DNA of 64,000 nucleotides from Capsulimonadaceae bacterium (GTDB taxonomy: Bacteria > Armatimonadota > Armatimonadia > Armatimonadales > Capsulimonadaceae), in the NCBI GenBank assembly GCA_965215505.1, contig OZ244065.1, forward strand, positions 2,496,001 through 2,560,000, given 5' to 3'. This document shows positions 4,303 through 64,000 of the stretch, one piece after another; the first letter of the stretch is position 1; the number at the start of each line of letters is the position of its first letter. The position numbers and the translations under genes were made by a program. The notes beneath the pieces are model-generated. The model saw only the letters and a program-made list of their open reading frames with translations. It had not been told where the DNA came from and searched no databases.

Positions 4303-4305
4303 TGC

Positions 4306-31451: not shown

Positions 31452-31495
31452 GACAGGGTTTGAACGCGGGCGGGAGTAGGAGGGGTTCCCGACCC

Positions 31496-32458: not shown

Positions 32459-32533
32459 GCCTCCTTTAACGGAACAAGGCGGCGGATTGTTCCGCCGCGA
32501 ACCCTTTTCGGCACACCCCGCGTTACAAACGAT

Positions 32534-34769: not shown

Positions 34770-34782
34770 CTTCTCTGGACAG

Positions 34783-34855
34783 TGCGCCCGGCGGGGCTCG
34801 AACCTGCGGCCTCTTAGTCCGCAACCAAGTGCTCTATCCACTGAGCTACGAGCGC
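34783..34855 (-). tRNA. tRNA-Arg(GCG)
   Basis: GCGCTCG/CGGGCGC acceptor stem; GCTC-AGTGGATA-GAGC; CTTGG-TTGCGGA-CTAAG; GGTTCGAGCC; one A-C mismatch in the T stem. Confidence 0.92.
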
Positions 34856-40267: not shown

Positions 40268-40307
40268 GGTATCCGCTTCACCGCTGGAAATAGAGGAGGG
40301 GGCAGAC

Positions 40308-40347
40308 AAAAAAAGCCGCCGCAGCAATCCCAAAGCGCTGCGGCGGC
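40308..40347 (-). terminator. Intrinsic terminator (minus strand)
   Basis: gccgccgcagc/gctgcggcggc hairpin with a T-run on the minus strand. Confidence 0.65.
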
Positions 40348-40434
40348 CGTCCTCACGAACTCTTACGAACTCGGAGAGACAAAGATAAGGAGATCACATC
40401 TGGTCTGACGACGCCGCCCGACCAAATGTTCCCT

Positions 40435-40858
40435 TTATCTAGGTTTAGTGCGGAAAATGTCTGCCGGGAATGGAGGCGGGGGTTGCGCTTGTTGGAGGCA
40501 TGACAGGGAACGGTATGGCATCAACCCCGTCGGGCCCATGCGGTTGACGGGGTTGTTTTGGGTGTAGCCGTAGAGGTTGATGCCCCCCGCGTAGCCGCTG
40601 GGATCCCGCGTCAGGAACCGCCCGCTCTGGGGGTCGTAGTGCCGGTTGGTGCAGAGGACCAGCCCCGTCTCGGTGTCGGTGTAGTAGCCCGCCTGCCCCC
40701 CGAAGCCCCACACGTCGGCGGGACCGGACCGCTTCTTTCCGAAGCCGTCATACAGGTCGGCGGACAGCAAGCCCCCGCTGGAGCCGACTCGCTGGGCGAC
40801 GTTGCCGCGCTCGTCGAAGGCGTAGAAGGCCGTGCCGCCGCCCGCGCCCTGCCGCTGA
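40435..40858 (-). pseudogene. RHS repeat-associated core fragment
   Basis: FYAFDERGNVAQR...YDGFG...GYYTDTETGL..C..RHYDP..GRFLTRDP.GY.GGINLYGY..NNPVN; the DPxG motif reads GPTG; the 5' end abuts a REP pair. Confidence 0.85.
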
Positions 40859-40861
40859 GGA

Positions 40862-40926
40862 AGGGCGAACACGAGGTTCGCGCCCTACAAGTCATTCCCG
40901 TAGGGGCGAACCTCGTGTTCGCCCTT
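40862..40926. repeat. Inverted GTAG-type REP pair
   Basis: agggcgaacacgaggttcgcgccctac ... gtaggggcgaacctcgtgttcgccct. Confidence 0.8.
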
Positions 40927-40979
40927 CTTGTCTGTGTTCCCCAGGTTGCCGTTTTCGCCCGACTTGCCGTGGCTCGGCC

Positions 40980-43109
40980 TTACTGGAAGGCCGCGCTGGC
41001 GAAGTCGAAGCGGACCTTTTTGGTCTTGGCAGAGTAGTATAAGGCGAAGTCACGCCCGAAGACCTTGCGGCTGACCGAGTACTCGAAGTCGCGGTAGCTG
41101 TCTATGACATACTCCTCGTAGGAGGAGACGATGCCGACGCCCCAGTTGTTGTTGATGCGGTAGTGGGCCGTGGCGAACAGGCTGCGGTCGCCGAGCGGCA
41201 GGCCGTAGCCACCGGAGAAGGCGACCGAGAGGCGCGGCAGCGGGTTGGTGAGGTAGGTGGCGGTGACGCGCTGCTGGGTACTGGACTTGAGCAGGGCCTC
41301 GAGCGGGTTGAGGCCGGACGAGGGCGTCCCGAGCTGCGAGAGCAGCGGGTCATAGCGATAGGTGTAGTTGAGCGAGAGCGAGTCCGACTTGCGGAAGGTG
41401 CGGGTGAGGCCGAGGCTGGCGCTGACGACGGGGGCCAGCTTGCTGTTCTGCGTACTCCAGACCTGGCCGACGGTGAGCGAGTCGGTGAGGTTGGTGCGCT
41501 TGTTGAGCTGTAAGGGCTGGGTGAAGAAGCGTATGTCTGCGGTGGTGTCGGAGACGGGGGTCGTGACCGTGCCGGTGTCCGGGGCGGTCTCGGTGACGGT
41601 GCCCCTCAGCAGCGAGAGGTCGGTTGAGTAATTGAAGATCGAGTGCCCCAATGTTTTGGGGTTGGTCTGGATGTAGGTGTTCAGGCTGTAGCTGCGGGCC
41701 GAGTAGCCGTCCGCGCCGGGGTCATTGCTGCCGGACGCGCTGGCGTTGACGGTGTAGCCGCTGAATTGGCGCGAGACGTTGGACGAGGCATACAGGCTGC
41801 GGTGGGCGGGATAGTCCACGAACATGTAGCCGGTCGTCACCGGGTCTATCTTCTGGGTGTGGTTCCACTGCGCGCCCCATTCGGAGCGGGTGATGCCGTT
41901 GACCAGGAACTGGCCCGTGCCGCCGCGCCCCGTCTGGTAGGTCTGTTCCAGGTCCAGGGCCAGGCCGTGGCGAACGCCCTGACTGCCGAAGAACGAGGCA
42001 CCCGTGGACAGGCTGTTGGCAATAGTCGCGCCGCTGACGGCGGCGTTCCGCAGGTAGACGGTGCCCTTGGAGTTGGGCGTCATGTTGTAGTAATACGGGA
42101 TGTTCAGGAACACGCCTTCCGACCCGAAGCCGAGGAGCTGCTGGCCGAAGATCTGGTCGGTGTTCATGGACATGACGTGGTAGGCCAGCGAGAGGAGCTT
42201 CTTGCCATCGCTGTAGATCGTCGCTCGCCGGAACTGAATCTGGTCGCCGGGGTCGGCGTTGATGCCGTGGGCGGACACGACGACGCGGCTGTCGGCGAGG
42301 TTCAGGAAGCGGTACGGGTTGGACACGAGCGGCAGGTCGGCGGGATCAACCGGCGCGGGCGCGGCCTCCAGGTCATTGCCGGTGACGGTGACGCTCTGGG
42401 CCTCACCGGCGAGGACGGCGGTCCCAGCCCAGTTCAGCAGGTCGTAGCGCAGCTCGGCGACGCGCAGGACGTGGCGGCCGCGCTGGAGCGTGGCGTGATG
42501 GGCGAGGACGAGCCGGGTCTGGAGGTCCACCTGGAGTGCGTCGGCCTTGATGTCCAGGCCCTTGTAGGAGAGGTGGGCGGAGCCGTTCTTGCCCTGCGCC
42601 TCGACGACGCGCGAGTCGGCGCTGTAGATGAGGTACTGGGGGCAGTCCAGGCGAATCCAGCGGGCGTCTTTGGAAAAAAGCGATTCCTTGTCTTCGGTGA
42701 ACTCGACCGTGGTGGTCCCCGCCGCCGACCCGGACGCCGCCGCGCCGAAAGACACGGCGGTGACGGTGGCGGTGCCCGACGAGGTGGCGCTGGTAAGCGA
42801 GATGCGAGCGACCCCCGACGTCGTCGAGGCGGTGTCCCCGGTGAGCGTGCCCAGCGTAGTCGTGAACCGGACCGGGGTATTGTTGGCGACGAGGCTGCCG
42901 CCCGCGTCCCGAACGGTGGCGGTGATGACCGTTGTACTCTTGCCGTCCGCGTAGATGATGTCCGGTGAGGCGGCGAGCGAGACGCTGGACAGGCCCGCCG
43001 CGCGCGCGGCGGTAGGCCGGAGCGCCGGAAGGAACGCCAGGACCACGAGGACGAACATCAAAAGGCGGGAGAGCGGGTCGGAGCAAGACCGAGCCGTACA
43101 AGGGCGCAT
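40980..43109 (-). CDS. Secreted protein with an invasin/Big_1-like Ig domain, an OstA-like region and a probable outer-membrane beta-barrel (LptD-like)
   Basis: Signal peptide; IYADGKSTTVITATVRD..G; IKADALQVDL..LRYDL; alternating aromatic beta-strands ending RFDFASAAFQ. Confidence 0.7.
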   Translation of the reverse strand: MRPCTARSCSDPLSRLLMFVLVVLAFLPALRPTAARAAGLSSVSLAASPDIIYADGKSTTVITATVRDAGGSLVANNTPVRFTTTLGTLTGDTASTTSGVARISLTSATSSGTATVTAVSFGAAASGSAAGTTTVEFTEDKESLFSKDARWIRLDCPQYLIYSADSRVVEAQGKNGSAHLSYKGLDIKADALQVDLQTRLVLAHHATLQRGRHVLRVAELRYDLLNWAGTAVLAGEAQSVTVTGNDLEAAPAPVDPADLPLVSNPYRFLNLADSRVVVSAHGINADPGDQIQFRRATIYSDGKKLLSLAYHVMSMNTDQIFGQQLLGFGSEGVFLNIPYYYNMTPNSKGTVYLRNAAVSGATIANSLSTGASFFGSQGVRHGLALDLEQTYQTGRGGTGQFLVNGITRSEWGAQWNHTQKIDPVTTGYMFVDYPAHRSLYASSNVSRQFSGYTVNASASGSNDPGADGYSARSYSLNTYIQTNPKTLGHSIFNYSTDLSLLRGTVTETAPDTGTVTTPVSDTTADIRFFTQPLQLNKRTNLTDSLTVGQVWSTQNSKLAPVVSASLGLTRTFRKSDSLSLNYTYRYDPLLSQLGTPSSGLNPLEALLKSSTQQRVTATYLTNPLPRLSVAFSGGYGLPLGDRSLFATAHYRINNNWGVGIVSSYEEYVIDSYRDFEYSVSRKVFGRDFALYYSAKTKKVRFDFASAAFQ

Positions 43110-43215
43110 GGTGGTTTCCTGAAAGGGACTCGCCCCGGCGTTAGGGCCGAGGCGGGTGGTTAGGGCTGCATGGAGAGGGGGACGAACTCGGGTCCGCCCC
43201 CTTTGGAAGACCGCG

Positions 43216-44202
43216 TTAGATGACCGGTGCGGCGGGCGGCGCACTGCTGGTGCCGCCGGTGAGGCCAGGCGGGCTGGGGGGGCCGCTGCTGCCGGTCCCC
43301 GTCGTCGTGGTGCCGGTCGAGCTGTTGTTATTGTTGCTGCTGTGGTGCGAGGAGCCAATGGCGATGCCGACGGCGGCAGCCAGCAAGATGCCCAGCAGGA
43401 TGGAGCCGCCGTTACTGTGGTGGCCACGCGCGTAGTCCGTGGACACCACGCGCTGGGGGACGGTGCCGTTCAGGGCCGAGACGATCTGGCCGGCCACGTC
43501 GTTGATGGCGCTCTGGAGGAGGGCATCGGAGTCGTCTCCGGGATTATAGGAGACGCCCTTTCCGGTGAAGACCAGCACACGGGCGGCCGTCCCCGTCGCC
43601 GAGTTGTAGAGGTTCGCGCTGACGGTCAGGGAGACATTGCGGGTGGCAGTGTCCGCTTGCAGCGACTCGATCGTGCCGATCAAATAGCCGTCGGTTCCCA
43701 CCTGGGCGGCGATCTTCTGCGTCTTTTGCGGATCATTGTAGGGCGGCTCCAGGTCGTTCTCGCTCAAGCCTTCCACGCGCGCCTCCTGCAAGGCGCGCTG
43801 AATCTGGGGCAGGGAAGGCGCGAAGCTGTTGGCCTTGTAGCGCCCGATGACGTTCAGGCGCATCTTGATGGCGTCTTCGACGCGCGCCCCGACTTGATCC
43901 GCATTGAAGCTGCTCGCCCCCGCTGCGGGGATGTTGCTGGCGAACGGGAACAGCAGGATCGAGTGGATCGGACCGGCCGCGACCGGCGACATCGGGATGC
44001 GGATGGTACTGCCGGCAGGCGGCGCGGGCGCGGCGGGGGCGGGGGCCTCCGGTGCGACCGGCGCGACCTGCTGCGCCCGGGCGGCGACCAGGAGGCCGCC
44101 GGGCGGGCAGAGCATGGCGGCGGCCAGCGCGAGCGCGAGGGTGCGCTTCGCGAAGGTGCGGACGCCCTTGCTCTGGGTGAACGTCTTGCAGTCGGTGAAC
44201 AT
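43216..44202 (-). CDS. Secreted CsgG/TolB-N-like domain protein with a C-terminal hydrophobic segment
   Basis: Signal peptide; ILLFPFA...KIAAQVGTDGYLIGTI; C-terminal GGSILLGILLAAAVGIAIG and GPPSPP. Alternative start at 44229. Confidence 0.65.
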   Translation of the reverse strand: MFTDCKTFTQSKGVRTFAKRTLALALAAAMLCPPGGLLVAARAQQVAPVAPEAPAPAAPAPPAGSTIRIPMSPVAAGPIHSILLFPFASNIPAAGASSFNADQVGARVEDAIKMRLNVIGRYKANSFAPSLPQIQRALQEARVEGLSENDLEPPYNDPQKTQKIAAQVGTDGYLIGTIESLQADTATRNVSLTVSANLYNSATGTAARVLVFTGKGVSYNPGDDSDALLQSAINDVAGQIVSALNGTVPQRVVSTDYARGHHSNGGSILLGILLAAAVGIAIGSSHHSSNNNNSSTGTTTTGTGSSGPPSPPGLTGGTSSAPPAAPVI

Positions 44203-44228
44203 GGATCTCTTCCTCTCGGTAACGCGCA

Positions 44229-46562
44229 TCAGTTCCGGGGCCGCCCGGCGAAGGTGCCCCGGCGCAGCGATGAAGCCCGGATCGCAGACCCCGTAGCACC
44301 CGTGATGTTCAGGGAGAGCGGGTCGCTGAAGACATACGGGTTGCTGAATCCCGCCTGGCCGTTGTCGGCGGAATTGCGCGCGCCGACCCGGTAGAAGAAG
44401 ACGGTCCCGCTGGGGAAGTCCGTCGTCAGGTTGATGTTGTTAAACACGACGGCCGTCCCGTTCGCGACGCTGATGCCGCCATTCTGGTTCGTCGGGAATT
44501 GCAGGGTCGCGGTGTAAGCTCCCGGCGCGGCCACATAGGTGTGGACGGTGGAGAAGCCGGGGTCGGTGCTGATTTGCAGGATGTAGTCGTTGGCACCGCG
44601 CGTTGCAGGCACAGTGACGTTGACGTTCGTGGCACCGGTCCCGGTGACCGCGTTGCCGAACGGGGCGACCGGCTCGATGTAGGTGACGTAGTTGGAGTTA
44701 CGCCGCCCGGTGAGCTGGAACGTCTCGCTGTGGCCCTGTGTGGTGGTAGTGCCCGTCGTGTTCTGGCCGGCCGTGTTCTGGCCGGTCGTGTTCTGGCCGC
44801 CGCCGCCCGTGGTGCCGCCGCCCGTAGTGCCCGTGCCGCCGCCCGTGGTGCCGTTGGTGTTGCCGGTGTTGTTCGTGTTCTGGCCGTTGTTGCCGGTCGT
44901 GCCGGGGTTGATCGTCCCCGTGTTGCCCGAGTTATAGGTGGAAGGCTGGATGTACAGCCCTTCAACCTGGTAGAAGACGCGCTGGCCGAATTGCAGTTCC
45001 GTGCCGGGGATCGGCGGCACGGTCGTGGTCGTCGTGGTCGTGGTCGTCGTGGTCGTCGTCGTGAAGACGAACCCGAAGCCTGCCCCGGTCAGCGTGACCA
45101 GAGTGCCGCTGTCAGAGGGGTCGGGCTTGGAGGCGGTCACGGACGCCTTCCCATTGAAGTCGTCGAAAACGAGCAGGTTGTTGTGGCCGGCCTGTGAGAG
45201 CAGGGGGATCTGGCCGAACCCGGACAGGCCCAGGATGCCTCCGGCGATGGTTGTCGTGTTGGTGCCCGTGTTGTTCGTGTTCGTGCCGTTGGTGTTGCTG
45301 TTGAAAATCGTGGTCGTCGTGGCCGAGTAGGCGGGCAGGCTGGCGAAGGAGGTCAGCGCGGCGGGCGCGTCACTCCGATAGACGTGGAACTCCAGGAAGT
45401 TGCTGTAGTCCACATTGCCCGTATCCGCCGTGATTCGGACAGCGACGGGGATGTAGCTGCTGTTCGGGAAGCCCACGGCGGGTACGCCGGTCAGGGAACC
45501 ACCGAGGTCCGACGACCTCCCGGAGACGGCGAGCACGCCTGAAACGCTCGCGCCGCCGAGCGAATGGGACCCACCGCCTGACTTGATGGCGCTCAGGAGC
45601 AGGCCGGCCGCGAGCAGAGCAACGAGGATGCCGCCGACGCCCTGGAAGGCGCTGTGGTGTACGGCAGTCGAGGGGGCGTCGGCGCCCACCTGCGCCGTGC
45701 TGGCGGTGACGAAACTGTGCGTCGCAGTGTCTATATGGTACTCAGGCAGTTGGTACAGGGCGGTCGCGCGGTCTTCGGGCTGAATGCCCTGGCCCTGATC
45801 CGTGATGACGGCCTCGGCGTCGTTGTTGGTGGCGCTGAAGATCCGGATACGCCCGGTGACGACGCCGTTACGGGACACCAGCATGTTCAGGCCGTTGTAC
45901 AGACCGTCCCGCGTGCCCTTGTTGAGCGTCACGGATTGGGTGTCGCGCCCAATCAGGACGGTCGCGACGGGGAGGCTGAATTTGCTGATCTGGCGGACGG
46001 CGTTGAAGGCGGCATTGCCGAACGCCTCGTTGACGAGCTGCTCCTCATCCGTGACGGGGATGGGGCGCTGGTTGGAATAGCCCTCGGCCAGCGCGCCGTT
46101 GAGCAGGAAGCCGGAGCGCGGGTCAAGGACACGAACGACCAGGCTGACTTTGGCCTGACGCCGGTCCCGCGAGAAGGAGACGGAGGCGATCTCCCCGGCG
46201 ACCATGCCCTGTACGCCCAGAGTCTGCCCCAGCCGCTCGATGCTGGTGAGGTTGAGGGGGGGAGTCAGATTGCTGTTCTGGATGCCGTTGAGCAGGTCCT
46301 GGCGGGGCAGGACGGCGTAGCGGTTGAGTTTCGCCAGTTCGACGACGAACGAGTCGGCGGCGAGCCGGCCGACATCGGTGCCGCCATACCCGGACGGGTT
46401 GGCGAAGTCCAGGACGGCCCAGGTGGGCTGGGGGGTGGCGAGTCCCTGTGCCCGCGCGGCGGGCGCGCGGAGCAGGAAGACGGCCAGAACGGGCAGTGCC
46501 ATCAGTACCGAGAGCAGTAGACTGAGGGGCCGCGCGCTCCAATGCTGTTTCAAATGTTTCAC
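44229..46562 (-). CDS. Secreted CsgG/FlgT-like protein with an internal hydrophobic helix, Thr/Gly-rich linkers and FN3-like domains
   Basis: WAVLDFAN...LGQTLGVQGMVAGEI; VTLNKGTRDGL (FlgT-C-like); GILVALLAAGLLLSAI; poly-Thr; FFYRVGARN. Confidence 0.7.
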   Translation of the reverse strand: MKHLKQHWSARPLSLLLSVLMALPVLAVFLLRAPAARAQGLATPQPTWAVLDFANPSGYGGTDVGRLAADSFVVELAKLNRYAVLPRQDLLNGIQNSNLTPPLNLTSIERLGQTLGVQGMVAGEIASVSFSRDRRQAKVSLVVRVLDPRSGFLLNGALAEGYSNQRPIPVTDEEQLVNEAFGNAAFNAVRQISKFSLPVATVLIGRDTQSVTLNKGTRDGLYNGLNMLVSRNGVVTGRIRIFSATNNDAEAVITDQGQGIQPEDRATALYQLPEYHIDTATHSFVTASTAQVGADAPSTAVHHSAFQGVGGILVALLAAGLLLSAIKSGGGSHSLGGASVSGVLAVSGRSSDLGGSLTGVPAVGFPNSSYIPVAVRITADTGNVDYSNFLEFHVYRSDAPAALTSFASLPAYSATTTTIFNSNTNGTNTNNTGTNTTTIAGGILGLSGFGQIPLLSQAGHNNLLVFDDFNGKASVTASKPDPSDSGTLVTLTGAGFGFVFTTTTTTTTTTTTTTVPPIPGTELQFGQRVFYQVEGLYIQPSTYNSGNTGTINPGTTGNNGQNTNNTGNTNGTTGGGTGTTGGGTTGGGGQNTTGQNTAGQNTTGTTTTQGHSETFQLTGRRNSNYVTYIEPVAPFGNAVTGTGATNVNVTVPATRGANDYILQISTDPGFSTVHTYVAAPGAYTATLQFPTNQNGGISVANGTAVVFNNINLTTDFPSGTVFFYRVGARNSADNGQAGFSNPYVFSDPLSLNITGATGSAIRASSLRRGTFAGRPRN

Positions 46563-46731
46563 GAGATGGAGTTCCTCCTAGAAATCGTCCTAAACTTTCG
46601 CCGCCCGCCGGACCAAGAAAAAGATCGGCGCGGGCGGCTTCGATGTCCAATGATTGCCGGCCCTCCCCCGCCCTGGCACGCGCCGGGGCGGGGGAGAGTA
46701 ATGAGACCGTCGGAGCGGCTCTCGGTCCGCT

Positions 46732-49700
46732 TTACCTTCCGGTCGGGATCTGCACGGTCGTATCCACATACACCTTGATCCAGTACGCCTGGTAAGGCTG
46801 GAGCGAATCGGACTGTGAGACCGTCTGGTAGTTGACCCCGTCGTAGCGGTACAAAGTCGGCGAGACGATGTGGTTCGCGCTCCCGACCGCGTTCGCGAAG
46901 GAGAGGGTCGTCGTGCCCGTGACGAACGTGAGGTTCGCGACGGGGACCGGAGACGTGCTGGGCACGCCGATCTGGTTCCAGGACGGGTGCAGGGCGACGC
47001 TGATCGCCCCGCCGGTCGCGACGCCGGGCGTCGTCAGGTCCACCGCGTTCTTCAGGAAGACCCAGTAGCCCACGCCGAGCCGGAGGGCGTCGGCGGGCGC
47101 GGTCGGGTCCAGGGCGTACTGCCCGAGCAGCGGGTTCCAGACCGCGACGTGCGTCCGGTTGCCGTTTGGAGTGGTCCCGGTCGGGGCCGTGTTCAGCACG
47201 CCGAACAGGCTGTCGAAGGACGTGCCGCTATAATCGAACGGCGCGGACAGGAAGTTCAGGCCCGCCGCGAACGTGTGCAGCGGCGGCAGGCCGTTGATCC
47301 CGGTGAAGTCCAGCCGGGTGAACGTGCTGGCCGAGATCGTGACGGTCTGCGAACCCGCCGTGACGCCGTTCTTGGCGGCGGTGACGGTGTAGGTCCCCGC
47401 CCCCAACGTGACCGGCCCGTAGTTGATCTGGCCGCCGTCCGAGGCCGGCGTGGACGTGCCCGCCGTGACCGGGGCGGGCGTGATGGCCTGTCCGGTGCCC
47501 GTGTTGGTGATGGTCAGCGTGACACCGGCCAGCGGTGCCGAGGACCCGGTGCCGGTGACCAGGCCGCCCAGGGTGCCATTGGCGAGCGCCCCCAGCATGA
47601 TGTCCGGCACGGTCGTGGTCGTCGCGCCGACCACGACGACGGAGATCGGCGCGCTGCTGCCGAAGCCGGTCGCCGAGGCGGTCACGTTGTAGGTGCCTGC
47701 GGCCAGCGCGGCGATGTTATAGGTCCCGGTCGAGTCGGTGGTCGCCGTGGCGGCGACGACGGCGGGGGTGCCGCTGCTGAAGAAGACCGAGGCACCGGGG
47801 ATCGGGTTGCCCGAGGTGTCCACGACTCGGCCCGTCACCGCGCCCGGACCGGGCTGGAGCTTGAAGTTGACGACCAGGGCGGCGTTGCTGGCGACGACCA
47901 GGTTGGTCTGCGTCTGCGAGCCGAAGCCGGTCTTCGTGGCCGTGCCGCTGTAGGTGGACGGGGCCACCGAGGACAGCGTGTAGTTGCCGTTGGAGTCGGT
48001 CGTAGTCGAGTAGATCTGGCCATCGGTCGAGGTGAACGTGACGCTCGCACCCGAGACGATGTTGCCGCCCGTGTCGGTGACTTTGCCGGCGATGGAGCCG
48101 GGCGCGGCGGGAACCAGGGTCAGGCTGGCCTGCTGGACCGCATCCCCCTCGACGGTGAAGACGACGCCGGGGTTCGAGGTGGCCCGGATGAAGCCCGTCC
48201 GGTAGGCGGCGAGTGTGTAGTTGCCCGGCTCGATGCCGTCAATCCGGTAGTTACCCGCCGAGTCCGTGGTCGCGCTGAAGGTCCCGCGCCCCGGAATGGG
48301 ATTGCCGGACGCGGACACTAGATAGACGGTGACGCCCGACACACCCGATCCGACGACGCCGTTGCCGCTCGTGGAGCGGATGGTGCCGACGATGGAGCCG
48401 GTCCGCAGATAGTCCACGATGTTGTGGATGATGCTCTGCCGCTGGTTGCGCGGGTTGTAGATCACCGGGTTCGGCTTGAAGACGCTCGTAACCTTATAGA
48501 ACTCGGTGCCGAGTCCTTCCAGGCCGAAGGTGGCATAAACCACCTTGGAGCCGGTGCCGCCCGCCGCCGTGATCGGGTTCTCCGTGTAGATCAGGCCCAC
48601 GCCGCCCGGTGAGGAGGCCGCCGCGTCGTTGCCGTTGTCGAGCGGCGGAATCGGGTTGGTGAAGGGCGCGAGCGTGATGTCCGTGTGCGCGCCCTTGCCC
48701 GGCGTGATGGTGTCGATCGCGCCGACAACCGCGTTGGAGTTGAGCAGGGCGACCGGATAGGGCTGGATGTACGGCCCCAACTGGTCCAGCGAGCCGTCGG
48801 TGCGCCAGTTCCCCGCGAACGTGTTGAAGTTCGTGAAGACCAGGTCGGACGAGAAGATGTTCCCCGCAAAGTTGTTCGAGATGCGGAGGAGCCTCTGGCC
48901 GGGCGGCACAGTGGTCACCGTGATGCCCGGCTCAAGCTCCCGGTAGTTGCCGATCACGACGCCATCATAGCCCGGCGTGTTGGTGATGCGGTTGTCGGCA
49001 ATGGTCGGGGCGGCGACGACGGCCGGGATGTGCGTGCCGCCGTTGGGCGTCGCGAGTGTCGCGTTCAGCACGTCAAAGACGAACCCGCCTGCGGCATTGT
49101 TGACCTGACCGTTCTGCGTCAGGGTCGAGCCGACATCCTCGCCGGAGATGCACAGGCGACCGCCCGCCGCCACGAAGTTCCGCAGCGAGGTCTGCGTGGC
49201 CGTGTCGGCCAGCGTCCCGGACCCGGCAAGAACGTCGCCGGTGAACGGCGCGATCCAGACGATGCACCGGTTGGCGACGGCGACGCTCGCCGACGGGGCG
49301 GTGAACTTGGTCGTGCCGCTCGTGTCGGCGACGGCCGGCTGCGTCTGCCGCGTCGGAGTGTAAGCAGCGTACACCGAGTTCGGAACCGGGCCGCGCGCCA
49401 GGGTGCGCCAGATGCTGTACTGCTGTGAACGGACTGCGGGGACGTTGTCAATACGCCCGCCATCGTCAATGAACCGGTCATAGTAGGAGCCAACGCCCAG
49501 GCCGTTGAAGACGGGGTTCATCAGCAGCTGCTGCTCCGGGGAACCGGGGCCACCCTCCGTGTCGAGGTCCCGCCCGGTGGGCGAGTAGGAGCTGCCCAGG
49601 AAGTTGACTTCCACGTTCGGGTCGTTGGCATTCGCGCCGGTGATGACCGTGTTCCGGTAGATGGCGTTCGGCAGCAGATTTACGTCAATGTCGGTGACGT

Positions 49701-54456: not shown

Positions 54457-54899
54457 GCGGGTACAACCTCCTTGGTTGCAGACACACGGCCGAGGCGAAC
54501 TTTTCCGGGACGATGGGTACTCGGATGGCCAGCACCGGGGCGGGGCGCCGTGAGGCGCGTCAGGGCGGGCATTCGTTTCCAGAAAAACAACGGTCTGGGG
54601 CGGCAATCCAATGACCAGGTAAAGACTGGGTGTAAAGACTGAGTAAAGAGCGACAAAATCGGGGCCTGCGAAAGACCGTCTTAAAGAGACTGGACGGCGA
54701 CCCGCTCAGGGCTGGGCACTCCGAGGGAGCGCGGGAACGAGCGTGGAAGCTAGCCTCAGGGGATTTCTAGGGTTCGTCAGGGGCGGCGGGTCGGCCCGGT
54801 TTCTGTCCGGGTCCGCCTGCGGCTTTGGGCGCGTGATTTCCTGCGTGCATGACCGGCTTTAAGGCCGGACCCCGGCAGAGGTGCGAGGGTGGTGAAACG

Positions 54900-54928
54900 A
54901 TTATAACATAGAGGCGACTTTTACGCAA
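54900..54928 (-). promoter_or_regulatory. Sigma70-type promoter for the 46732-54456 gene (long leader)
   Basis: Minus strand TTGCGT-17bp-TATAAT. Confidence 0.6.
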
Positions 54929-54992
54929 GCGGTTTTTTCGCGATTCCGTCAGCGGGACTTTCTTTTCGTATTTATTTCATCGGAGGGCGGCG

Positions 54993-55032
54993 GAAGAGAA
55001 GCGGCGGAGACGAATGACTCGCCCCCGCCGCC
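54993..55032 (-). terminator. Probable terminator after the upstream giant gene
   Basis: gcggcgggggcgagtcattcgtctccgccgc followed by ttctctt on the minus strand. Confidence 0.6.
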
Positions 55033-55054
55033 TAGTTCCGGCCCCCGACCAAGC

Positions 55055-58000: not shown

Positions 58001-61000
58001 CGTCCCGGTTGACGACGTGACGCGGCCCGAGACCGTCGCCAGAATCGGCGTCAGCGTGAAGTTGACCGGCTGCGTCGTGGCGTTGGACAGGACGGAGACG
58101 CCCGCATTGAAGGGCGCGTCCGGGGCCGCCGCCGTCGTGTACTCAAAGGTCCCTTGGTCGTTGGTCGGGCCATTGGCGACCGAGGTGTAGGTCGCCACCG
58201 GGACGCTGTCCACGAAGTAGGAGCCGGCGGGCTGGCCCGCCTGGAGCCCGGTGCGCGTCGTGGTCGTCTCGGTCGTCGTCTTGTCGGTCGAGGTGAAGGT
58301 GACGCTGGCCCCGATGAGGCCGTTGCCGGCCGTGTCCTTGACGGTGCCGGCGATGCTGCCGGGGTTAAGGGCCGTGATCGTCAGTGTGCCGTTGTTGCGG
58401 ACGACGCCGCCTTCCAGCGTGAACGCCGTACCGTTGTTGCCGATCGTCCTCTGGAAGCCCGACTTGTAGGCGACCAGCGTGTAAGTGCCCGGCTCGATGC
58501 CGTCAATGGTGAACCGCCCGTCGCCGCCCGTGCTGGCGCTGAAGGCCGCCCGAGTGGGGGGTGCGCCGCCGGTGGGGCGGAGGTAGACGGTGACGCCCGC
58601 CACGGGAGTACCCGCCGCCACGCCCGGTCCGGCCGTCTGGGTGATGATGCCCGTGACGCTCGCGGTCCGCAGGTAGCAGATGATGTTGTGCAGGATCGCC
58701 TGGCGCGGATCGCGCGGGATGACCGGCGGCGGGACGCGCGGCGGGTCCGGCGGGATCGGCGCGACAGAGGCGTAATAGTCGCTGCTCAGGGACTCGATGC
58801 CGAAGGCGGCATAGACGGTCCGGCTGCCGGTGCCGCTGTTTGGCGTCCCCGTTTGCGTGATATTCTGGAACGGATCGTCATGGAAGACCATGGCGACCGG
58901 GCCGCCCGCGCCGTAAGTGGCGGCGACAGTCGCGCCATTGGTGGGCGCAATGGTGTCTATCCGGCCCTGGATGCTGGCACCGGTCGCCAGGGTGAGGGCG
59001 GGGATCTGGTCCAGCGCGGCGTCATTACGGTCAACATTCCCCAGGATCAGGTTGTCCTGATAAGGAAGATTTTGCAGGTTGACGATGAAGAAGCCAGTCG
59101 TGAAGTTCCCAATCACGGTCAGGTAGCGGCCAGCGCTCGTGTTGTCGTAGAACGGGCTTCCGGTGATCCGGTTGGCCGTGGCAGCCAGTGTGGTGCTGCC
59201 GCCGCCCGGCGTCACCTCTTTAGCGCTCAGGACGTCCGGCAGGAAGCCGCCGGCCGTATTGCCCGAGGTGCCGTTGATCGTCAGCGTCGCGCCGACGTCT
59301 TGCCCGGTCATGAACAGGCGTCCGCCACCAGGATGGGCGGCCGTACCGTCGCCGAGGACGAAGTTGCGGAGGACGGTCTGCGTGCTGGGCCGTGCCACGC
59401 TGCCATTCTGGGCAGGCGTGCCGGGGTCGTTCAGCGAGCCGGGGTCGGTCAGCAGGTCCCCAGTGTAGGGTGAGAGCCAGATGACACACCGGGGGGCGTT
59501 CAGGATGGTCGCGGCCGGGATGTTCGCGAAGGCGGGATCAACGGGGTCGTTGATGGCCGGCTGTGTCTCCCTCAGGGGCAGGTAGCTGGCGAGGACCGCG
59601 TCCGTAACGGGACCGCGCGCCAGGGTACGCCAGATGGTGTACCGCTGCGTGGGCAGGTCGGGTGCCCCGTCGCGGCGCTCGCCGTCGTCAATGATGGTGT
59701 CATAGTAGGACCCGACGCCAAGCCCATTCTGCGTGGTGATCGTCGTGCCGAAGAAGGTGCCGAACGAAGTCCAGTTGAACAGCGTCGGATCGTAGAGGAA
59801 CGGCTGGACGAGCGTCGGCGAGGGCGGGTTGACGGTCCCGACAGCAAGACCCGCGTAGTTGACGTCAGCCAGAGTGCTGATGTCCACGTCGGTCAGGTAG
59901 GACTCGGCACCAAACAACTTGGGCACAAGGTTCAGGTTGGAGTCGCGCCCGGCGAAGGTCGTGGCGGCGAACTTCTGCCCCAGGGCATAGTCGCTCACGA
60001 CCAGGATGCTGTTAGCGCTGCTGAGGTTCTGGACAGTGCTGAAGCCGCCGGTGTTGTCGTAGATGCGCCAGTTGACCTGCTTGCCGACATAGTTGGACGT
60101 GCCAACGGGGATGTTCGGGAAGACGGCCTGGTCATACGCGACGACGTCCAGGAAGAAGTCGCTGGCCGAGGCCGGCGTGGTCCAGGTGACGGTGTAAAGC
60201 ACGCCGCCCCGGTTGTCCTGGACGGGAGACGGCACCATCTGGAGCCACTCAGCCGGAGCAGTCCCGTTCTGGGCGATGGGCCGCACCTTGTTGACGCCGC
60301 TGAAGGCGGCCTGATCGTCCACGCCAGCCAGCCAGAACGGGTTCCGGAAGTCGGCGGGCGATACGTCGCCGATGCCCGAGTTCGGGTTCCCGCTGGTAAG
60401 GAACTGCGGGTTGACGAGCTGGCACTCGTACTCCGGCCCGCGCGGGATGAACAGGGCGGGGTCTCCGCCGGTCTCGCCGCCCGGATTGATGCCGCCGCCG
60501 GCCTTACCGACGAAGATGTAGGTGTCGTCCGGGTTGTTGGCGTCCGGGAACGTCCACTGGCCGCCGTGTGCGCCGCGCGGGAAGACGTCGCGCCCCACAA
60601 TCGAGGGTAGCTGGGTTATGCCCCCAAAGGGAGGGTACTGATACTTATTGTTCGTGATGATCCCGTTGGGCGGCCCTTCGTAGCCAAGGAAGCCGAGGCC
60701 GAGAGACGAGTTCGCCGTCCCGCTGTCCGTGTCGTTGCTGGTGAAGCGGTTAGGCTGGTTGTTGTACTGGCTGTCCTTAGAGAAGACCTTATGCTCCAGG
60801 TTCTGCGAGTCCTGATACTTGGAGTTCGGGTTCTTGATCTGGAGGAAGACCTGCGAGCGGCTCGGGAGGGTGGTCCCGCCGACGTTCACGGTGCTGGTCG
60901 GCCCGTTGTTGAGGGGCGCGCGCGGGGTACCGTCCGAATTGGTACCGTTGTCAATGCCGGCCTCGCGGTCGGACAGGCGGACCGTGAAGGTGACCTTCTG

Positions 61001-64000
61001 GCCCGGAGCGATGCCCACCTTCTCCGACACGCCGCTGATGGGGGTTGCGCTGTTGCCGGCCTGAACGTGGATGATCTCGTTCGGGTTGTAGCGTAGCAGC
61101 GTCGGCGGGTCCAGGTTCAGCACCTGGGACTCGAAGATGCCGGTGTAGCCCAGGACGCCGAACCGGGGGGTGGGGCCGACGACGCTGTAGGTGGGCTGAC
61201 TTGTGCTTGATGTGTTGACTACGCCGCCCGGTGCGACGGAGATGGCCGTCTCGCTGGGGAAGGAGCTAGACGGGTCGTTATAGGTGACGGTGCGGCTGTT
61301 CGTCACGGCCCCCGTCGCGAAGTTGAAGCCGCCGCCCTGGTAGGTGATGCTGAAGATGGACAGGCCGGGTGACCAGGCTGGGTACACGTCGTCGAACGTG
61401 TTGCCGGTCTGCGCGCCCTCCTGCTGCCCGCCGGTCCCGTTGGAGCCTGCGGTGGTCTCGCCGCTGTTGTCATCCGTATTCAGCCTGACGACGGCGTTGG
61501 CCGCGCTCGCCCCGGTTGGCGTGTCGCCTTCGGGAACGATCTGCTCCTGGAAGTTCGCGGTGACGAAGTAGAAGTATTCGTTGCCGATCGTGGCCTGCGT
61601 GTCCACGAGCGTCAGGAGGCCGCCATTGTTGGTCGGGACCTGGTTCAGCAGGTAGGCGAAGGCACCTTCCTGGCCCGCGCCGGTGCCGGGCGAGTTCAAC
61701 TGCGTCGGTGAGCCGGCACTGCGGAAGACGCTGAAGCTGGTCGGCGTGCCGAGGCTGCCACCCACGCCGCCGGGCGTGTTGAAGGTCAGCGTGACGGAGC
61801 CGAAGCCGGGGCCGCTGCCGCCGTTGAAGTCGCCGATCGCCAGCAGGTTCTGCGGGGCCGAGGGGTCGGTGGCGGTCGTAAGGTTCCCGAAGCCGCTGCT
61901 CGCCGTCCGGGTCCCGTTGACGTTCGCTCCGGCGAGGACCTCGATGCCCTGGATGATCGGGACACCTTTAGCGACGGGGACGGAGTTCGTGAAGTTCAGG
62001 GTGATGTTGTTCGCCAGGTCGGTGTTGCCGAAGTTGTCCCTGAAGGTCCTCGCAGGAACGGTCACGTTGAAGGTCTGGACCACGGCGGCGTTCGGCTGGC
62101 CGCCGTTCGCGCGGACCAGGACCTGGTTCAGGTTTGTGACCGAGCCGTTTATGATGCTAGGCGTCGCCTGGACCGTCGTGTACCCAGGCAGGCTGAAGGT
62201 CACGGTGTACTGAGTCCCAGGCGTCACGGCACCGGGAAGGTTGACGCTGAAGTTAGGCTGCCCGTTCGCGGTGTTGACGATGGCCCGGTAGCCCGCCCCC
62301 ACGATGGTGATGGTCACCCCGGTCAGCGGCTGGCCCGAGGCCATGTCCGTGGCGTTGCCGCTCAGGGTGCCGACCGTGTTGCCGCCGGCGAGGGCGAAGT
62401 TCGTCGTGGTCGGCGTGTTGGCGGTGAAAGTGGCGGTCTGGGTCTGCGTGGCGAGGCCCGTGGCCGTTGCGGGGTTCGCGGTGATGTTAAAGGTGCCATT
62501 CGGGACCGGGAAGTTGTAGTTCCCGTTCGCGTCCGTCGTCCCCGATGCGATGAGGGCCGTGGTGACGGGGTCGGTGACCCGGATCGGGACATTGGGCGCG
62601 GGTGCCGTCGTGACCGCGTTGGTCACGTTGCCGACGGCCGTTGCGGTCGTCCCCGACACCACATTGAAGTTCGCCCGCGTGAAGCCGGCGCTGTTGACGA
62701 CGATCGTCTGGCTCTGCGCCGTGAAGCCGGCCCCGGAGGCCGTCACGGTGTAGGTGCCGGAGGGCAGGTTGGAGAAGTAGTTCGTCGGAGCACCGTCGCC
62801 GTTCGGCGGGGCGAAGGTCTGCGGCACGCCCGTGGTCAGGGTGCGGAGGACGTTGCCCGCCGCATTCGTGACGGTGACGGTGACGCCCGGCTGCGCGTTG
62901 CCGCCGGACGTGACGAGGCCGCCGAAGTTGCCGGGGCCGCCCAGGGCGTTCGCCACGATATCGAAGTTGGTCAGGATCTGCTGGCCGTTGGCGACCACGT
63001 TGAACTGGCGCTGGCCTGCGGCGGTGTTGGTCGGGTCGGAGAAGTGCAGCCGCAGCGTGTAGGTGGCACCCGCCGTCAGGTTGGGCAGGGCGTAGTTCAT
63101 CGGGCCGTTCCGGTCGGTCAGGAAGATGCCCACGGGCGTCCCCGGATCGCCGGCCGTGCTTGGGACGTTGGGCGGGTTGACCGTTTCCGTCACGCCAGGA
63201 AGGAAGGGACTGAAAAAGCCCTGGCCGTTGTTGAAAAGGTTGTTGTTGTCGGCCAGATAGCCACCGACCCCGCCGCCGGACAGGTCCCCAGCGTTGATCT
63301 GGTAGACGGGGAAGTTGAACGTCCGGGGCGTGGTCCCGGCCTCGATGGACCGCTGGCTGCCGCCGCCCGCGTTGAGGAAGCGCACCGCCTGGATGTAGAC
63401 AATGTCGTGCGTCGCGGTCTGGCTGGCCCCACGCGCGAAGGCGAGGTACTCGAAGCCGGGCGACGGATTGGTGAACTGGTTCGGGTTGTTGAAGCTCCAG
63501 GCCGGCCCGAAGTTATCCGTGCCGACCGCCGTGATTGCGCCGACCCGGCCGCCCTGCGTCTGGAACGAGGCGGGCACGACGCCCAGGCCGTTGCCCGACG
63601 TGCCGCCGCCGCCGACCAGGAAGATGGTGCGGTTGCCGCCGGTCGTGCCGCCGGAAGTCAGGGTCGGGACGCCCCCACCTGCCCCGTTCGGGGTGAGCGA
63701 GGTGGCCGTGGAGGCGAACGCGACGAACTGGCCGTCCTTCGAGCTGGCCGGGTCCGTGTCGTCAGCCGGGCCGTCGGTGAGCTGGCCGGGGAAGGAGATG
63801 TTGTTCGCGTCGGAGCCGCCCGAGCTGGTGAACAGGAAGTACAGGTGGTTATGGAAGGCATTCGGCCCGGTGACGCTGCGGGCGGAGAAGACAAGCTCGC
63901 CCGCGTTGGTGCCCAGGAAGGTGGGCCGCTGCACCGCGTCGAAGCCGGTCAGGGCGGCGCTCTGCGCCTCGGTCGGGAAGGTGGTCTGACCGGCGGGCGC
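55055..64000 (-). CDS. Giant surface protein, paralog of 46732-54456 (>2980 aa; 5' end outside the window)
   Basis: Frame open to 64000; same domain order and shared motifs (QVFLQIKNPNSKYQDSQ.LEHKVF, IWRTLARGPV, GGRL..G.DVG); more carboxypeptidase-regulatory-like repeats. Confidence 0.88.
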   Translation of the reverse strand, partial: APAGQTTFPTEAQSAALTGFDAVQRPTFLGTNAGELVFSARSVTGPNAFHNHLYFLFTSSGGSDANNISFPGQLTDGPADDTDPASSKDGQFVAFASTATSLTPNGAGGGVPTLTSGGTTGGNRTIFLVGGGGTSGNGLGVVPASFQTQGGRVGAITAVGTDNFGPAWSFNNPNQFTNPSPGFEYLAFARGASQTATHDIVYIQAVRFLNAGGGSQRSIEAGTTPRTFNFPVYQINAGDLSGGGVGGYLADNNNLFNNGQGFFSPFLPGVTETVNPPNVPSTAGDPGTPVGIFLTDRNGPMNYALPNLTAGATYTLRLHFSDPTNTAAGQRQFNVVANGQQILTNFDIVANALGGPGNFGGLVTSGGNAQPGVTVTVTNAAGNVLRTLTTGVPQTFAPPNGDGAPTNYFSNLPSGTYTVTASGAGFTAQSQTIVVNSAGFTRANFNVVSGTTATAVGNVTNAVTTAPAPNVPIRVTDPVTTALIASGTTDANGNYNFPVPNGTFNITANPATATGLATQTQTATFTANTPTTTNFALAGGNTVGTLSGNATDMASGQPLTGVTITIVGAGYRAIVNTANGQPNFSVNLPGAVTPGTQYTVTFSLPGYTTVQATPSIINGSVTNLNQVLVRANGGQPNAAVVQTFNVTVPARTFRDNFGNTDLANNITLNFTNSVPVAKGVPIIQGIEVLAGANVNGTRTASSGFGNLTTATDPSAPQNLLAIGDFNGGSGPGFGSVTLTFNTPGGVGGSLGTPTSFSVFRSAGSPTQLNSPGTGAGQEGAFAYLLNQVPTNNGGLLTLVDTQATIGNEYFYFVTANFQEQIVPEGDTPTGASAANAVVRLNTDDNSGETTAGSNGTGGQQEGAQTGNTFDDVYPAWSPGLSIFSITYQGGGFNFATGAVTNSRTVTYNDPSSSFPSETAISVAPGGVVNTSSTSQPTYSVVGPTPRFGVLGYTGIFESQVLNLDPPTLLRYNPNEIIHVQAGNSATPISGVSEKVGIAPGQKVTFTVRLSDREAGIDNGTNSDGTPRAPLNNGPTSTVNVGGTTLPSRSQVFLQIKNPNSKYQDSQNLEHKVFSKDSQYNNQPNRFTSNDTDSGTANSSLGLGFLGYEGPPNGIITNNKYQYPPFGGITQLPSIVGRDVFPRGAHGGQWTFPDANNPDDTYIFVGKAGGGINPGGETGGDPALFIPRGPEYECQLVNPQFLTSGNPNSGIGDVSPADFRNPFWLAGVDDQAAFSGVNKVRPIAQNGTAPAEWLQMVPSPVQDNRGGVLYTVTWTTPASASDFFLDVVAYDQAVFPNIPVGTSNYVGKQVNWRIYDNTGGFSTVQNLSSANSILVVSDYALGQKFAATTFAGRDSNLNLVPKLFGAESYLTDVDISTLADVNYAGLAVGTVNPPSPTLVQPFLYDPTLFNWTSFGTFFGTTITTQNGLGVGSYYDTIIDDGERRDGAPDLPTQRYTIWRTLARGPVTDAVLASYLPLRETQPAINDPVDPAFANIPAATILNAPRCVIWLSPYTGDLLTDPGSLNDPGTPAQNGSVARPSTQTVLRNFVLGDGTAAHPGGGRLFMTGQDVGATLTINGTSGNTAGGFLPDVLSAKEVTPGGGSTTLAATANRITGSPFYDNTSAGRYLTVIGNFTTGFFIVNLQNLPYQDNLILGNVDRNDAALDQIPALTLATGASIQGRIDTIAPTNGATVAATYGAGGPVAMVFHDDPFQNITQTGTPNSGTGSRTVYAAFGIESLSSDYYASVAPIPPDPPRVPPPVIPRDPRQAILHNIICYLRTASVTGIITQTAGPGVAAGTPVAGVTVYLRPTGGAPPTRAAFSASTGGDGRFTIDGIEPGTYTLVAYKSGFQRTIGNNGTAFTLEGGVVRNNGTLTITALNPGSIAGTVKDTAGNGLIGASVTFTSTDKTTTETTTTRTGLQAGQPAGSYFVDSVPVATYTSVANGPTNDQGTFEYTTAAAPDAPFNAGVSVLSNATTQPVNFTLTPILATVSGRVTSSTGTALAGATVTLTGPTVGATAPTVLTTTTAADGTYTFTNVPAASTALSATPVTGIPYTITATASGFGAGAAPGPVTLELGDVVTDTTAPAHRTDVVLTALASISGRIFDNTVGDTNAGGANVAGATVTLTNAAGTVVATTSASATGTYTFTNVPSTTTPTTYTVTATRVGFTTNSSAPFTVVLGSVITAKDIGLTPIAPGSITGRVTDTANGGAGVGGALVTFVSADGTTTLHATADGSGNYSLPTVFPGTYNGTATGPLNPNGRPTTTQGTATAVVASAPAVATANFSVATIPPSLAGTVTDSATPTHNPLKNALVTITDTASGTVIQTLHTDANGKYSTGPLPASGKPLSQYTVTITASLVGFATQSLPSQSIYNGDALTDTIASEAPLLDIALVAAGAGSVSGQVTDVSTGAGVSGAVVSFLSTDGTTTLPSATTDANGNYSIPTTGKTDPSGNYIGSVTPPNNANGRPEFTTPPTQNITIPAGGTQTVNFTLTEILAALSGTVLDNQTGTPISGATVTLTDATGKAIGTPQTTGATGTFSFAAIPAGQAPAAFALSATVPGGYFPGAKTVTLSLGDLLTGQNIGLDEKGTITGLVTDGSTGQPLPNVSLTVTDTTTKATPTNLTPSPLVTTPGTAIGPDGKTSNYTATFTLTPGHSYTVSASKPNYNPTAPVAVTPSPLTASQAGRADLQLTSGIGTLGGLVSDATTNAAIGGATVTVASVSATGASTVVATFTTNSSVSPAPDGKTQGINYSGQVAQGTYTVTLAFGSRTPVVQKVTVVGGQFNRLDFTGANGAPPVYVFPAGLNFLSTPYDYSSLSFDTLFGILNTAPTGTTPNGNRTHVAVWDPTVSQYAVDPNAPADSLRLGVGYWVFLKNAVPLTVQGATPSAAFVPVALHPSWNQIGVPNIKGVPVSSLMFDNGAGGMISFATAASSQYHVVAPTLYSFDGSGYQPVTQSSVLQPWKAYWIQVYSGATLEIPTK

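Follow-up and report, generated by a model that had tools for sequence, protein, structure and literature searches.

A conserved Capsulimonadaceae gene cluster encoding a predicted LptD-superfamily barrel, two FlgT/CsgG-type proteins and two giant surface-type proteins

The stretch analysed here, hereafter the window, comprises 64,000 nucleotides of contig OZ244065.1 from a Capsulimonadaceae bacterium (assembly GCA_965215505.1), and its positions 40980-64000 are occupied by five co-directional genes, all on the minus strand and transcribed in the order E, D, C, B, A. This gene cluster is clearly an envelope module conserved in one family of soil bacteria, the Capsulimonadaceae, bringing together a barrel protein with similarity to the lipopolysaccharide (LPS) translocon LptD (A), two smaller proteins with FlgT/CsgG-type domains (B and C) and two giant proteins (D and E). 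Tentatively, as the likeliest of the readings weighed here though with less than an even chance of being right, the cluster would encode a specialised LptDE-like translocon with a ring scaffold, building the surface anchorage of the giants. The five genes, with lengths in amino acids (aa) and immunoglobulin abbreviated as Ig, are as follows:

55055 to 64000, minus strand: giant protein E, at least 2981 aa, with PD40, malectin, at least 12 CarboxypepD_reg-type Ig-like repeats, a central block without family and a C-terminal domain (CTD)
46732 to 54456, minus strand: giant protein D, 2574 aa, with a signal peptide, PD40 propeller repeats, malectin, CarboxypepD_reg repeats, a central block and the CTD
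44229 to 46562, minus strand: protein C, 777 aa, with a signal peptide, a FlgT-like two-domain N-terminal part, a hydrophobic helix and about 450 aa of linkers and beta-rich domains
43216 to 44229, minus strand: protein B, 337 aa, with a signal peptide, a Pro/Ala linker, a domain paralogous to C, a hydrophobic helix and a tail
40980 to 43109, minus strand: protein A, 709 aa, with a signal peptide, an Ig domain, a beta-jellyroll and a large beta-barrel; LptD superfamily

Judged from its sequence and its structural model, protein A is a divergent, unannotated branch of the LptD superfamily with an added Ig domain, having three parts:

42696 to 42986, minus strand: Big_1/Invasin_D3 Ig domain of A (aa 42-138; Pfam Invasin_D3, 4.1e-11)
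42210 to 42656, minus strand: OstA/LptD_N-like beta-jellyroll of A (aa ~152-300; from LptD_N, a profile match and the strands of the model)
41001 to 42203, minus strand: beta-barrel of A (aa ~303-703; about 22-24 strands in the model by DSSP)

The placement in this superfamily follows from the Foldseek ranks, a diverse sequence profile, the LptD_N matches, the structural similarities in Atlas and the aromatic C-termini of the family. The AlphaFold model (mdf86942a070c; predicted local distance difference test score, pLDDT, 72.4; predicted template modelling score, pTM, 0.43) comprises the Ig domain, a beta-sandwich at ~152-300 and a barrel at 303-703, and when it was compared with the PDB by Foldseek, LptD chains took every rank from 1 to 15 (E 1.5e-14 to 7.8e-11), ahead of the FimD usher at E 1.5e-7 and, after it, TonB-dependent receptors. 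A diverse profile of 30 family members reached Neisseria LptD (7omm_A) at E 1.2e-9, with profile positions 147-423 corresponding to chain residues 104-397, followed by a second LptD (E 0.0012) and by LptA (E 0.0027); with a profile built from Capsulimonadaceae alone, Neisseria LptD is reached only at E 0.0086. Pfam LptD_N is matched in 7/35 family members (best E 0.0036) and LptC in 2/35, while Pfam on A of the window returns the invasin-type Ig domain alone (Invasin_D3/Big_1, 43-138). In addition, an Atlas structure search with the Fimbriimonas homologue of A found LptD clusters at template modelling (TM) scores of 0.42-0.45, and the C-terminal residue is F, Y or W in 26 of 30 family members, a terminal aromatic residue being the usual signal of outer-membrane barrels. 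The alignment of the A profile to the single E. coli LptD sequence by hhalign (probability 0.6%) is uninformative, as it uses a single-sequence template. No conserved cysteines occur in the family, 18 of 30 members having no Cys past residue 40.

The family of A is widespread in its phylum. A first search returned 87 close relatives of about 700 aa, and a profile of the non-Ig part of A retrieved 441 representative clusters at E<=1e-3, with 190 of these at E<=1e-30, nearly all of 640-710 aa and with an N-terminal extension of about 130 aa. The Ig domain is present in 35/35 close and 36/36 distant members, and in the 36 distant representatives Big_1/Invasin_D3 is matched and no other Pfam family at E<=0.01. 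Organisms bearing the family include Fimbriimonas ginsengisoli, Fimbriimonadaceae and Capsulimonadaceae, and the source records name these proteins 'Ig-like domain-containing', 'invasin domain 3-containing' or 'hypothetical'. The literature searches found no description of this cluster or of an Ig-LptD-like family. Outside the Armatimonadota, the nearest structural neighbours of the A family in the Atlas result for P0364 are unnamed Vulcanimicrobiota clusters (TM 0.49-0.54), and an Ig-less type of this barrel may be present there too.

B and C are paralogous proteins of the FlgT/CsgG/PelC/LptE fold, each with a hydrophobic helix as its likely anchor in place of a lipid, and have the following parts:

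45705 to 46439, minus strand: FlgT/CsgG-type alpha/beta plus beta domain of C (aa 42-286; from the model and Foldseek)
45585 to 45641, minus strand: hydrophobic helix of C (aa 308-326; Kyte-Doolittle 2.37; modelled as helix 309-329)
43456 to 43977, minus strand: CsgG/LptE-type domain of B (aa ~85-258; from hhalign against C)
43354 to 43410, minus strand: hydrophobic helix of B (aa 274-292)

The C protein of the window matches Pfam CsgG at E=0.003, with 17.4 bits against a cut-off of 20.8 and over profile positions 6-100 of 210; among 30 members of its family, CsgG is matched in 29 (best E 1.5e-7), LptE in six and FlgT_M, weakly, in three. A model of C residues 1-335 (m9c4f7f9c0fba; pLDDT 73.8, pTM 0.60) consists of the signal helix, an alpha/beta domain, a beta domain and the helix 309-329, and its best Foldseek match is FlgT (LPHT ring 8z5n, E 2.5e-12; 3w1e, E 6.4e-12; 275 columns), followed by CT253, GNA1162, PelC (2.1e-6 to 1.1e-5), CsgG (2.6e-6), the TolB N-domain and LpoB. 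By hhalign, the N-domain of C has a homologue in B (probability 97.4%, E 1.5e-11, 187 columns), and B on its own gives weak matches to LptE (window protein E=0.033; 2/20 members) and to LpoB. Searches of PDB sequences with the C and B profiles gave low-complexity or chance matches only, and hhalign of the family profiles against the single sequences of E. coli CsgG and LptE (probability <1%) is uninformative, these again being single-sequence templates. By Atlas feature matches, C-like proteins also belong to larger clusters of the Armatimonadota, such as a 632-aa cluster of 254 members, and the source records name Capsulimonas corticalis, a cultured species, as bearer of a C homologue.

The one extra hydrophobic helix of each protein is kept in 30/30 C and 20/20 B sequences. 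In B, the mean number of K/R per 12 residues drops from 2.75 before the helix to 0.05 after it (20/20 homologues), and the tail past the helix is His-rich, then Ser/Thr/Gly-rich, ending in PPxPP. In C, the charge is balanced (1.53 before, 1.50 after), and some 450 aa follow the helix, with conserved beta-rich blocks and linkers rich in Gly, Thr and Asn, a part in which Pfam finds nothing, fn3 included; we take poly-Thr/Asn/Gly linkers, as in this tail, to be typical of extracytoplasmic proteins. Within the first 70 residues, a lipobox-like motif was found in 0/30 C and 0/20 B sequences, which fits the report that diderm Terrabacteria are without the Lol system and outer-membrane lipoproteins, LptE included (PMC11784454).

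D and E would be Sec-exported giant surface-type proteins, built of a propeller, malectin, many Ig-like domains and a shared C-terminal domain of 190 aa. They are paralogues with 40% identity over 2283 columns, rich in Thr and Gly (D, T 12.2% and G 11.4%; E, T 14.7% and G 12.2%), and Pfam finds in them PD40 propeller repeats, malectin and many CarboxypepD_reg/prealbumin-type Ig-like repeats. In D, the central block without known family covers aa ~1100-2080 (open reading frame numbering); the central 951 aa of the giants (48367-51219 in D) have no match among PDB sequences, and GLMA_2nd at E 0.14 is the only Pfam hit there. In bins of 100 residues, the identity between the giants peaks twice, at D 1101-1300 (62-67%) and over the last ~200 residues (61-65%), where E residues 2757-2958 align with D. 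This second peak corresponds to the CTD:

55058 to 55627, minus strand: CTD of E (190 aa, conserved; no Pfam family)
46735 to 47304, minus strand: CTD of D (190 aa, ending in IPTGR; no Pfam family)

The CTD is found in 21/21 aligned giants, from the window and its relatives, usually ending in IPTG[K/R]; it matches 0 Pfam families at E<=10, its best PDB sequence match (E 0.24) is not significant, and it has no profile similarity to A or to C. A second gene bearing it lies upstream of the D homologue in three of the five loci in which this region is visible (L008, L015 and L022, and not L012 or L023). Such a shared and conserved C-terminus is the pattern that would be expected, from sequence, of a common sorting or docking signal. 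Two known classes were considered for the giants and rejected. The Kustd1514-type S-layer glycoprotein (NCBIfam NF052345, an anammox S-layer family) is matched with 62.2 and 23.4 bits against a cut-off of 1400, through the Ig-like repeats only, and NCBIfam gives no family-level assignment; cargo of the type IX secretion system, with a Por_Secre_tail-type C-terminal domain, does not fit, given the lack of any Pfam match of the CTD at the threshold given above.

The genome scan with the A alignment gave 30 loci, on which the five proteins were searched by tblastn. True relatives are encoded in 29 of them, one locus per assembly, the remaining locus (L030) being an Ig-only match in another phylum. 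All 29 are labelled Armatimonadota or Capsulimonadaceae, save one record labelled Janthinobacterium; this contig (L015, JBPBQB010000285.1), from a metagenome-assembled genome labelled Janthinobacterium lividum, carries the entire Armatimonadota-type cluster at 57-64% identity and is probably mis-binned for that reason. The synteny count covers the 24 loci in which the sequence upstream of A extends over 5 kb or more, and the order giant-C-B-A, on the same strand, is kept in 23 of these Capsulimonadaceae loci, while the identity of A falls from 85% down to 31%. In the remaining locus (L029), a giant of at least 3147 aa lies immediately upstream of A, with no B or C between them. Two loci with short flanks (L007 and L018) have B directly upstream of A, and three (L002, L026 and L027) are without upstream sequence. 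The genes downstream of A vary by locus, including a prepilin-like protein, a TPR protein with Tgt, a permease, a methyltransferase and others, so the conserved block ends at A. In L024, the D homologue is broken over three frames (1-6608) and the A homologue over two (9986-12104), owing to frameshifts or to long-read assembly errors.

Concerning the gene calls, E is open at the edge of the window, its 5' end lying outside, and its length is a lower bound; by alignment with D, about 280-300 N-terminal residues are estimated to be lacking. The open frame of D spans 46732-54606, with a likely TTG start at 54456 directly after AGGAGG, giving 2574 aa. The start of B overlaps the stop of C, and the gaps between D and C and between B and A are 169 and 106 nt. 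A hydrophobic segment near the N-terminus spans residues 12-30 in A, 31-49 in B, 13-31 in C and 60-78 in D. These calls agree with a preliminary description of the same DNA, made from the sequence alone, which had listed five co-directional envelope-type genes here, signal peptides in the four complete proteins and a pair of Thr/Gly-rich paralogues of more than 2500 aa; its start of B at 44202 has to be corrected, as this is the second Met and the reading frame begins at 44229. Its assignment of a CsgG/TolB-N-like domain and a helix to two proteins, and of an Ig domain, an OstA-like segment and a barrel to a third, is likewise borne out by the results above.

Of 30 other open reading frames of the window scanned with Pfam, 24 match a family, with housekeeping genes, FeoAB, N_methyl plus DUF1559 proteins and others. 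By Pfam, none of the 30 belongs to the core families of curli or of the type I, V or IX secretion systems, as the preliminary description had already noted. No lpt or lpx gene and no flagellar family was found among these frames or among the 12 frames scanned downstream of A in six relatives' loci, nor any pel or csg partner gene among those of the window. The Rfam matches in the window are two tRNAs and nothing else. A promoter and terminator scan of 40200-55300 was uninformative, with no promoter-like site and with 10 terminator-like sites where 8.5 were expected.

The boundaries of the genes show some further features. The spacer of about 600 nt between E and D (54457-55054) has an AT-rich stretch immediately past the stop of E and, near 54905, a box resembling TATAAT; from these features D may be transcribed from a promoter of its own, its leader then being about 440 nt long. 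Directly downstream of A lies a 145-aa open reading frame (40435-40872, minus strand) without a Pfam match at E<=0.01, which is not kept in the relatives' loci; its stretch YDPQSGRFLTRDP...INLYGYTQNNPVN looks like the end of an RHS/YD-repeat core. Between this frame and the stop of A, at 40880-40930, there are two GC-rich palindromes (GGGCGAAC...GTTCGCCC).

In the arrangement favoured here, A would be a specialised LptD-superfamily barrel of the outer membrane, with its jellyroll in the periplasm and the extra Ig domain at the jellyroll tip, and it would operate with B as an LptE-like partner and with C as a ring or stalk, in the manner of LptDE or PelBC. Relatives of the FlgT/CsgG/PelC/LptE fold form plugs or rings under outer-membrane barrels. 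The jellyroll and the lateral gate of A would place a membrane-anchored surface component into the outer membrane, and the giants would be kept at the cell surface by the A/B/C complex through their common CTD. A is linked to genes for giant surface-type proteins across deep divergence and is without lpt or lpx neighbours among the frames scanned. It is perhaps not the housekeeping LptD, as there is a separate Armatimonadota cluster of about 516 aa (462 members, 24% with LptD_N; an Atlas lead only, score 0.88), which, likewise as a lead only, resembles the small functional LptD of diderm Firmicutes, and as a precedent for two LptD proteins is known from Acetonema.

In that precedent, the diderm Firmicute Acetonema longum, a 16-strand LptD occurs together with a distant 26-strand LptD-like protein, for which the authors suggest another function, and LptE was not found (PMC13018214). 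An Armatimonadota isolate is reported to be diderm by cryo-electron microscopy, though the phylum lies within the Terrabacteria (PMC11535203). Surface export of anchored proteins by LptD translocons has also been described, as in Bacteroidota, with a translocon that is enlarged by up to eight subunits and exports surface lipoproteins (bioRxiv 10.64898/2026.10.03.756453), in E. coli (PMC12065857) and in Borrelia (bioRxiv 10.1101/2022.12.21.521298). The published substrates of the LptD family are LPS and surface lipoproteins, which are lipid-anchored, unlike soluble chains of 2600 aa (bioRxiv 10.64898/2026.10.03.756453). The preliminary description had proposed a machine dedicated to exporting or anchoring very large surface proteins. 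The folds and the conserved envelope module speak for such a machine, whereas export of the giants through the barrel is disfavoured by the lipid-anchored nature of these substrates. Of the three reasons that this description had named for abandoning it, unconfirmed CsgG-like folds and an unconserved gene order do not apply, since A is LptD-like and C FlgT/CsgG-like by Foldseek on the models, B is the paralogue of C by hhalign, and the order is conserved in 23/24 loci; the third, that A is simply the only LptD of the genome, may hold.

Compared with known systems, A shares with LptDE (E. coli, Shigella, Klebsiella, Neisseria; PDB 4q35, 5iv9, 7omm) the succession of an OstA-type jellyroll and, in the model, a very large barrel, and the gene beside it encodes, in B, a small alpha/beta protein with weak LptE similarity. 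However, A has an extra N-terminal Ig domain, no match to PF04453 and no conserved cysteine pair, its partner B has a helix and no lipobox, and the neighbours are giants instead of lpt or surA-type genes; moreover, the canonical LptD barrel has 26 strands, against about 22-24 in the A model (pLDDT 72; TM 0.19-0.33). The 26-strand type is represented by F7NII2 of Acetonema longum (PMC13018214), which is likewise a Terrabacterial LptD-like protein with jellyroll and large barrel, barely detected by hidden Markov models and without an LptE lipoprotein; it coexists with a smaller bona fide LptD, as A may also do, but it is reported near LPS genes, whereas A adjoins giants and FlgT-like genes. LptD-dependent export of surface lipoproteins in Borrelia, E. 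coli and Bacteroidota resembles the proposal in that an LptD-type barrel with added subunits places anchored proteins at the surface. There, the cargo is lipoprotein delivered by Lol, while here the lineage is reportedly without Lol (PMC11784454) and the candidate anchors are alpha-helices.

As for C, FlgT of the Vibrio flagellar H-ring (3w1e, 8z5n) is the best structural match of its N-terminal part, over both domains, but C adds the hydrophobic helix and the 450-aa C-terminal part. PelC, acting with PelB, and CsgG are ring-forming outer-membrane lipoproteins of exopolysaccharide and curli export with the same alpha/beta fold as C, and the arrangement proposed here is alike, with a ring beneath, or forming, an outer-membrane barrel. 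C as a CsgG curli channel was rejected, given the lack of a lipobox, the partial Pfam match, the absence of transmembrane hairpins in the model and of CsgA/B/E/F among the window frames scanned. Fusions of CsgG with fibronectin type III domains in Verrucomicrobiota and Thermodesulfobacteriota (Atlas) have a CsgG-type N-domain followed by beta-sandwiches, and with 675-816 aa they are similar in length to C; these clusters have weak feature scores of 0.77-0.80 and are leads only, and C has no Pfam fn3. For A, two other classes were rejected. Inverse autotransporters (intimin/invasin) export a C-terminal Big_1 through a 12-strand N-terminal barrel, and A is reversed, with Big_1 at the N-terminus and an LptD-like barrel at the C-terminus; in the case of chaperone-usher systems, FimD ranks below 15 LptD chains, and no Usher, chaperone or pilin Pfam family is matched among the window frames scanned.

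Several observations weigh against a specialised translocon. Contact between any of the five proteins is something that we infer, and in L029 neither B nor C stands beside A, showing that they are not obligatory neighbours. A helix following a signal peptide would normally stop in the inner membrane, keeping the helices of B and C off the outer membrane. The model of A is of moderate quality, as given by its pLDDT and pTM, its TM-scores to LptD are low (0.19-0.33) and its strand count is uncertain, and the Pfam LptD barrel model PF04453 is matched in 0/35 close (E<=1) and 0/36 distant (E<=0.01) members. The second LptD_N family of about 516 aa is an Atlas lead only. In the giants, neither the central 951 aa nor the CTD has a Pfam family or a significant PDB match. 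Finally, the A family is broad, its 441 clusters reaching the Fimbriimonadaceae, and is present in one copy in each of 29 genomes, so that a housekeeping gene fits this breadth and single copy as well as a dedicated one.

Ranked behind the specialised module, the main rival, which we hold to be rather unlikely, takes A and B as the ordinary LPS translocon of the lineage, a divergent LptD with a helix-anchored LptE stand-in that annotation has missed, the giants and C being merely co-expressed with it as surface-layer components, for instance sitting on LPS. It draws on the homology between A and LptD, which covers the jellyroll and the first part of the barrel, the weak LptE matches of B (2/20) and C (6/30), the breadth and uniform architecture of the A family with one locus per genome, and the source names, all of which are Ig-like, invasin domain 3 or hypothetical. 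It has to account, on the other hand, for the lack of lpt and lpx genes among the frames scanned in the window and in the six relatives' loci, for the Ig domain of A, which occupies the end of the jellyroll where LptA docks on LptD, and for a tight and deep synteny with giant proteins that, to our knowledge, has not been described for lptD. Armatimonadetes carry four core LPS synthesis genes (PMC5007114), and as lptD and lptE were not seen in sequence surveys of atypical diderms (PMC8871954), an overlooked divergent form is to be expected. Against this stands the second Armatimonadota LptD_N family of the Atlas lead, which is like the 16-strand functional LptD of Acetonema (PMC13018214).

It is improbable, and third in rank, that A is a protein-conducting channel through which the giants cross the outer membrane unfolded, with the CTD as targeting signal and C and B as a periplasmic gate or ring. 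The CTD is common to both giants and kept in all 21 aligned sequences, even L029, without B and C, has a giant gene immediately upstream of A, the second-best fold class of A is FimD, a protein-secreting barrel, and no other secretion-system core genes stand beside the giants among the 30 frames scanned. Nevertheless, the LptD matches beat those to the usher by seven orders of magnitude, the CTD is without profile similarity to A or C, the LptD-family substrates named in the papers cited are LPS and surface lipoproteins, and the window holds type II secretion-like pseudopilin genes (N_methyl plus DUF1559) as another possible route for folded giants. Least probable of all is that only common descent keeps the five genes side by side, as unrelated envelope genes in an order peculiar to the family and without shared function. 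The 29 related loci all belong to a single family-level clade, so that their common ancestry can exaggerate the synteny count, and B and C are absent at this position in L029; yet the order persists down to 31% identity of A and with entirely different genes downstream, C and B overlap at stop and start, and the five products are all envelope proteins.

Elsewhere in the window, two N_methyl plus DUF1559 proteins (30699-31517, minus strand, and 32333-33169, plus strand) flank a radical-SAM/DUF3641 gene (31496-32458, minus strand), and in L003 a DUF1559 gene (12034-12930) also follows the A homologue; the prepilin-type N-terminal methylation motif (N_methyl) is a feature of type II secretion pseudopilins. 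A protein of 1269 aa (26769-30578, minus strand) is sedolisin-like, having an N-terminal pro-kumamolisin activation domain. Divergent fasciclin-domain genes (33277-33861, minus strand, and 34131-34646, plus strand) adjoin a tRNA-Arg (34782-34855). Between 2000 and 6000, the GC content is 0.55-0.61, against ~0.68 elsewhere; the genes in this stretch include XisH (3361-3786) and one with a PIN domain (4306-4749), and it is possibly a small island of the mobile or toxin-antitoxin kind.

Returning to the specialised translocon, a bolder version of it, which we regard as a long shot, would make A an LptD-superfamily translocon turned insertase for alpha-helically anchored surface proteins, in a lineage without lipid anchoring to the outer membrane. 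The helices of B and C would follow the jellyroll groove and exit through the lateral gate as lipid A does, while their hydrophilic C-terminal tails would cross the lumen to the cell surface, and the resulting ring-and-stalk anchor would hold two giant S-layer-like proteins by the shared CTD. The tail of B, nearly free of K/R past the helix in 20/20 sequences (0.05 against 2.75 before it), is compatible with such an insertase, and so are the poly-Thr/Asn/Gly linkers in the 450-aa tail of C. If true, outer-membrane proteins of Terrabacteria would have a route of biogenesis not known until now.

How an outer membrane is built and decorated without Lol, without outer-membrane lipoproteins and without a recognisable LptE is a question for diderm Terrabacteria (PMC11784454, PMC8871954, PMC13018214). 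This locus offers a concrete candidate in the form of unannotated Ig-jellyroll-barrel relatives of LptD that occur across the Armatimonadota. In Capsulimonadaceae, the barrel is genetically tied to helix-anchored proteins of the FlgT/CsgG/LptE fold, which are possible substitutes for lipoproteins, and to giants sharing a CTD without a Pfam family, which are possible clients. Both outcomes would be useful, as A may be either the missing LPS translocon of the phylum or a specialised paralogue handling surface proteins.

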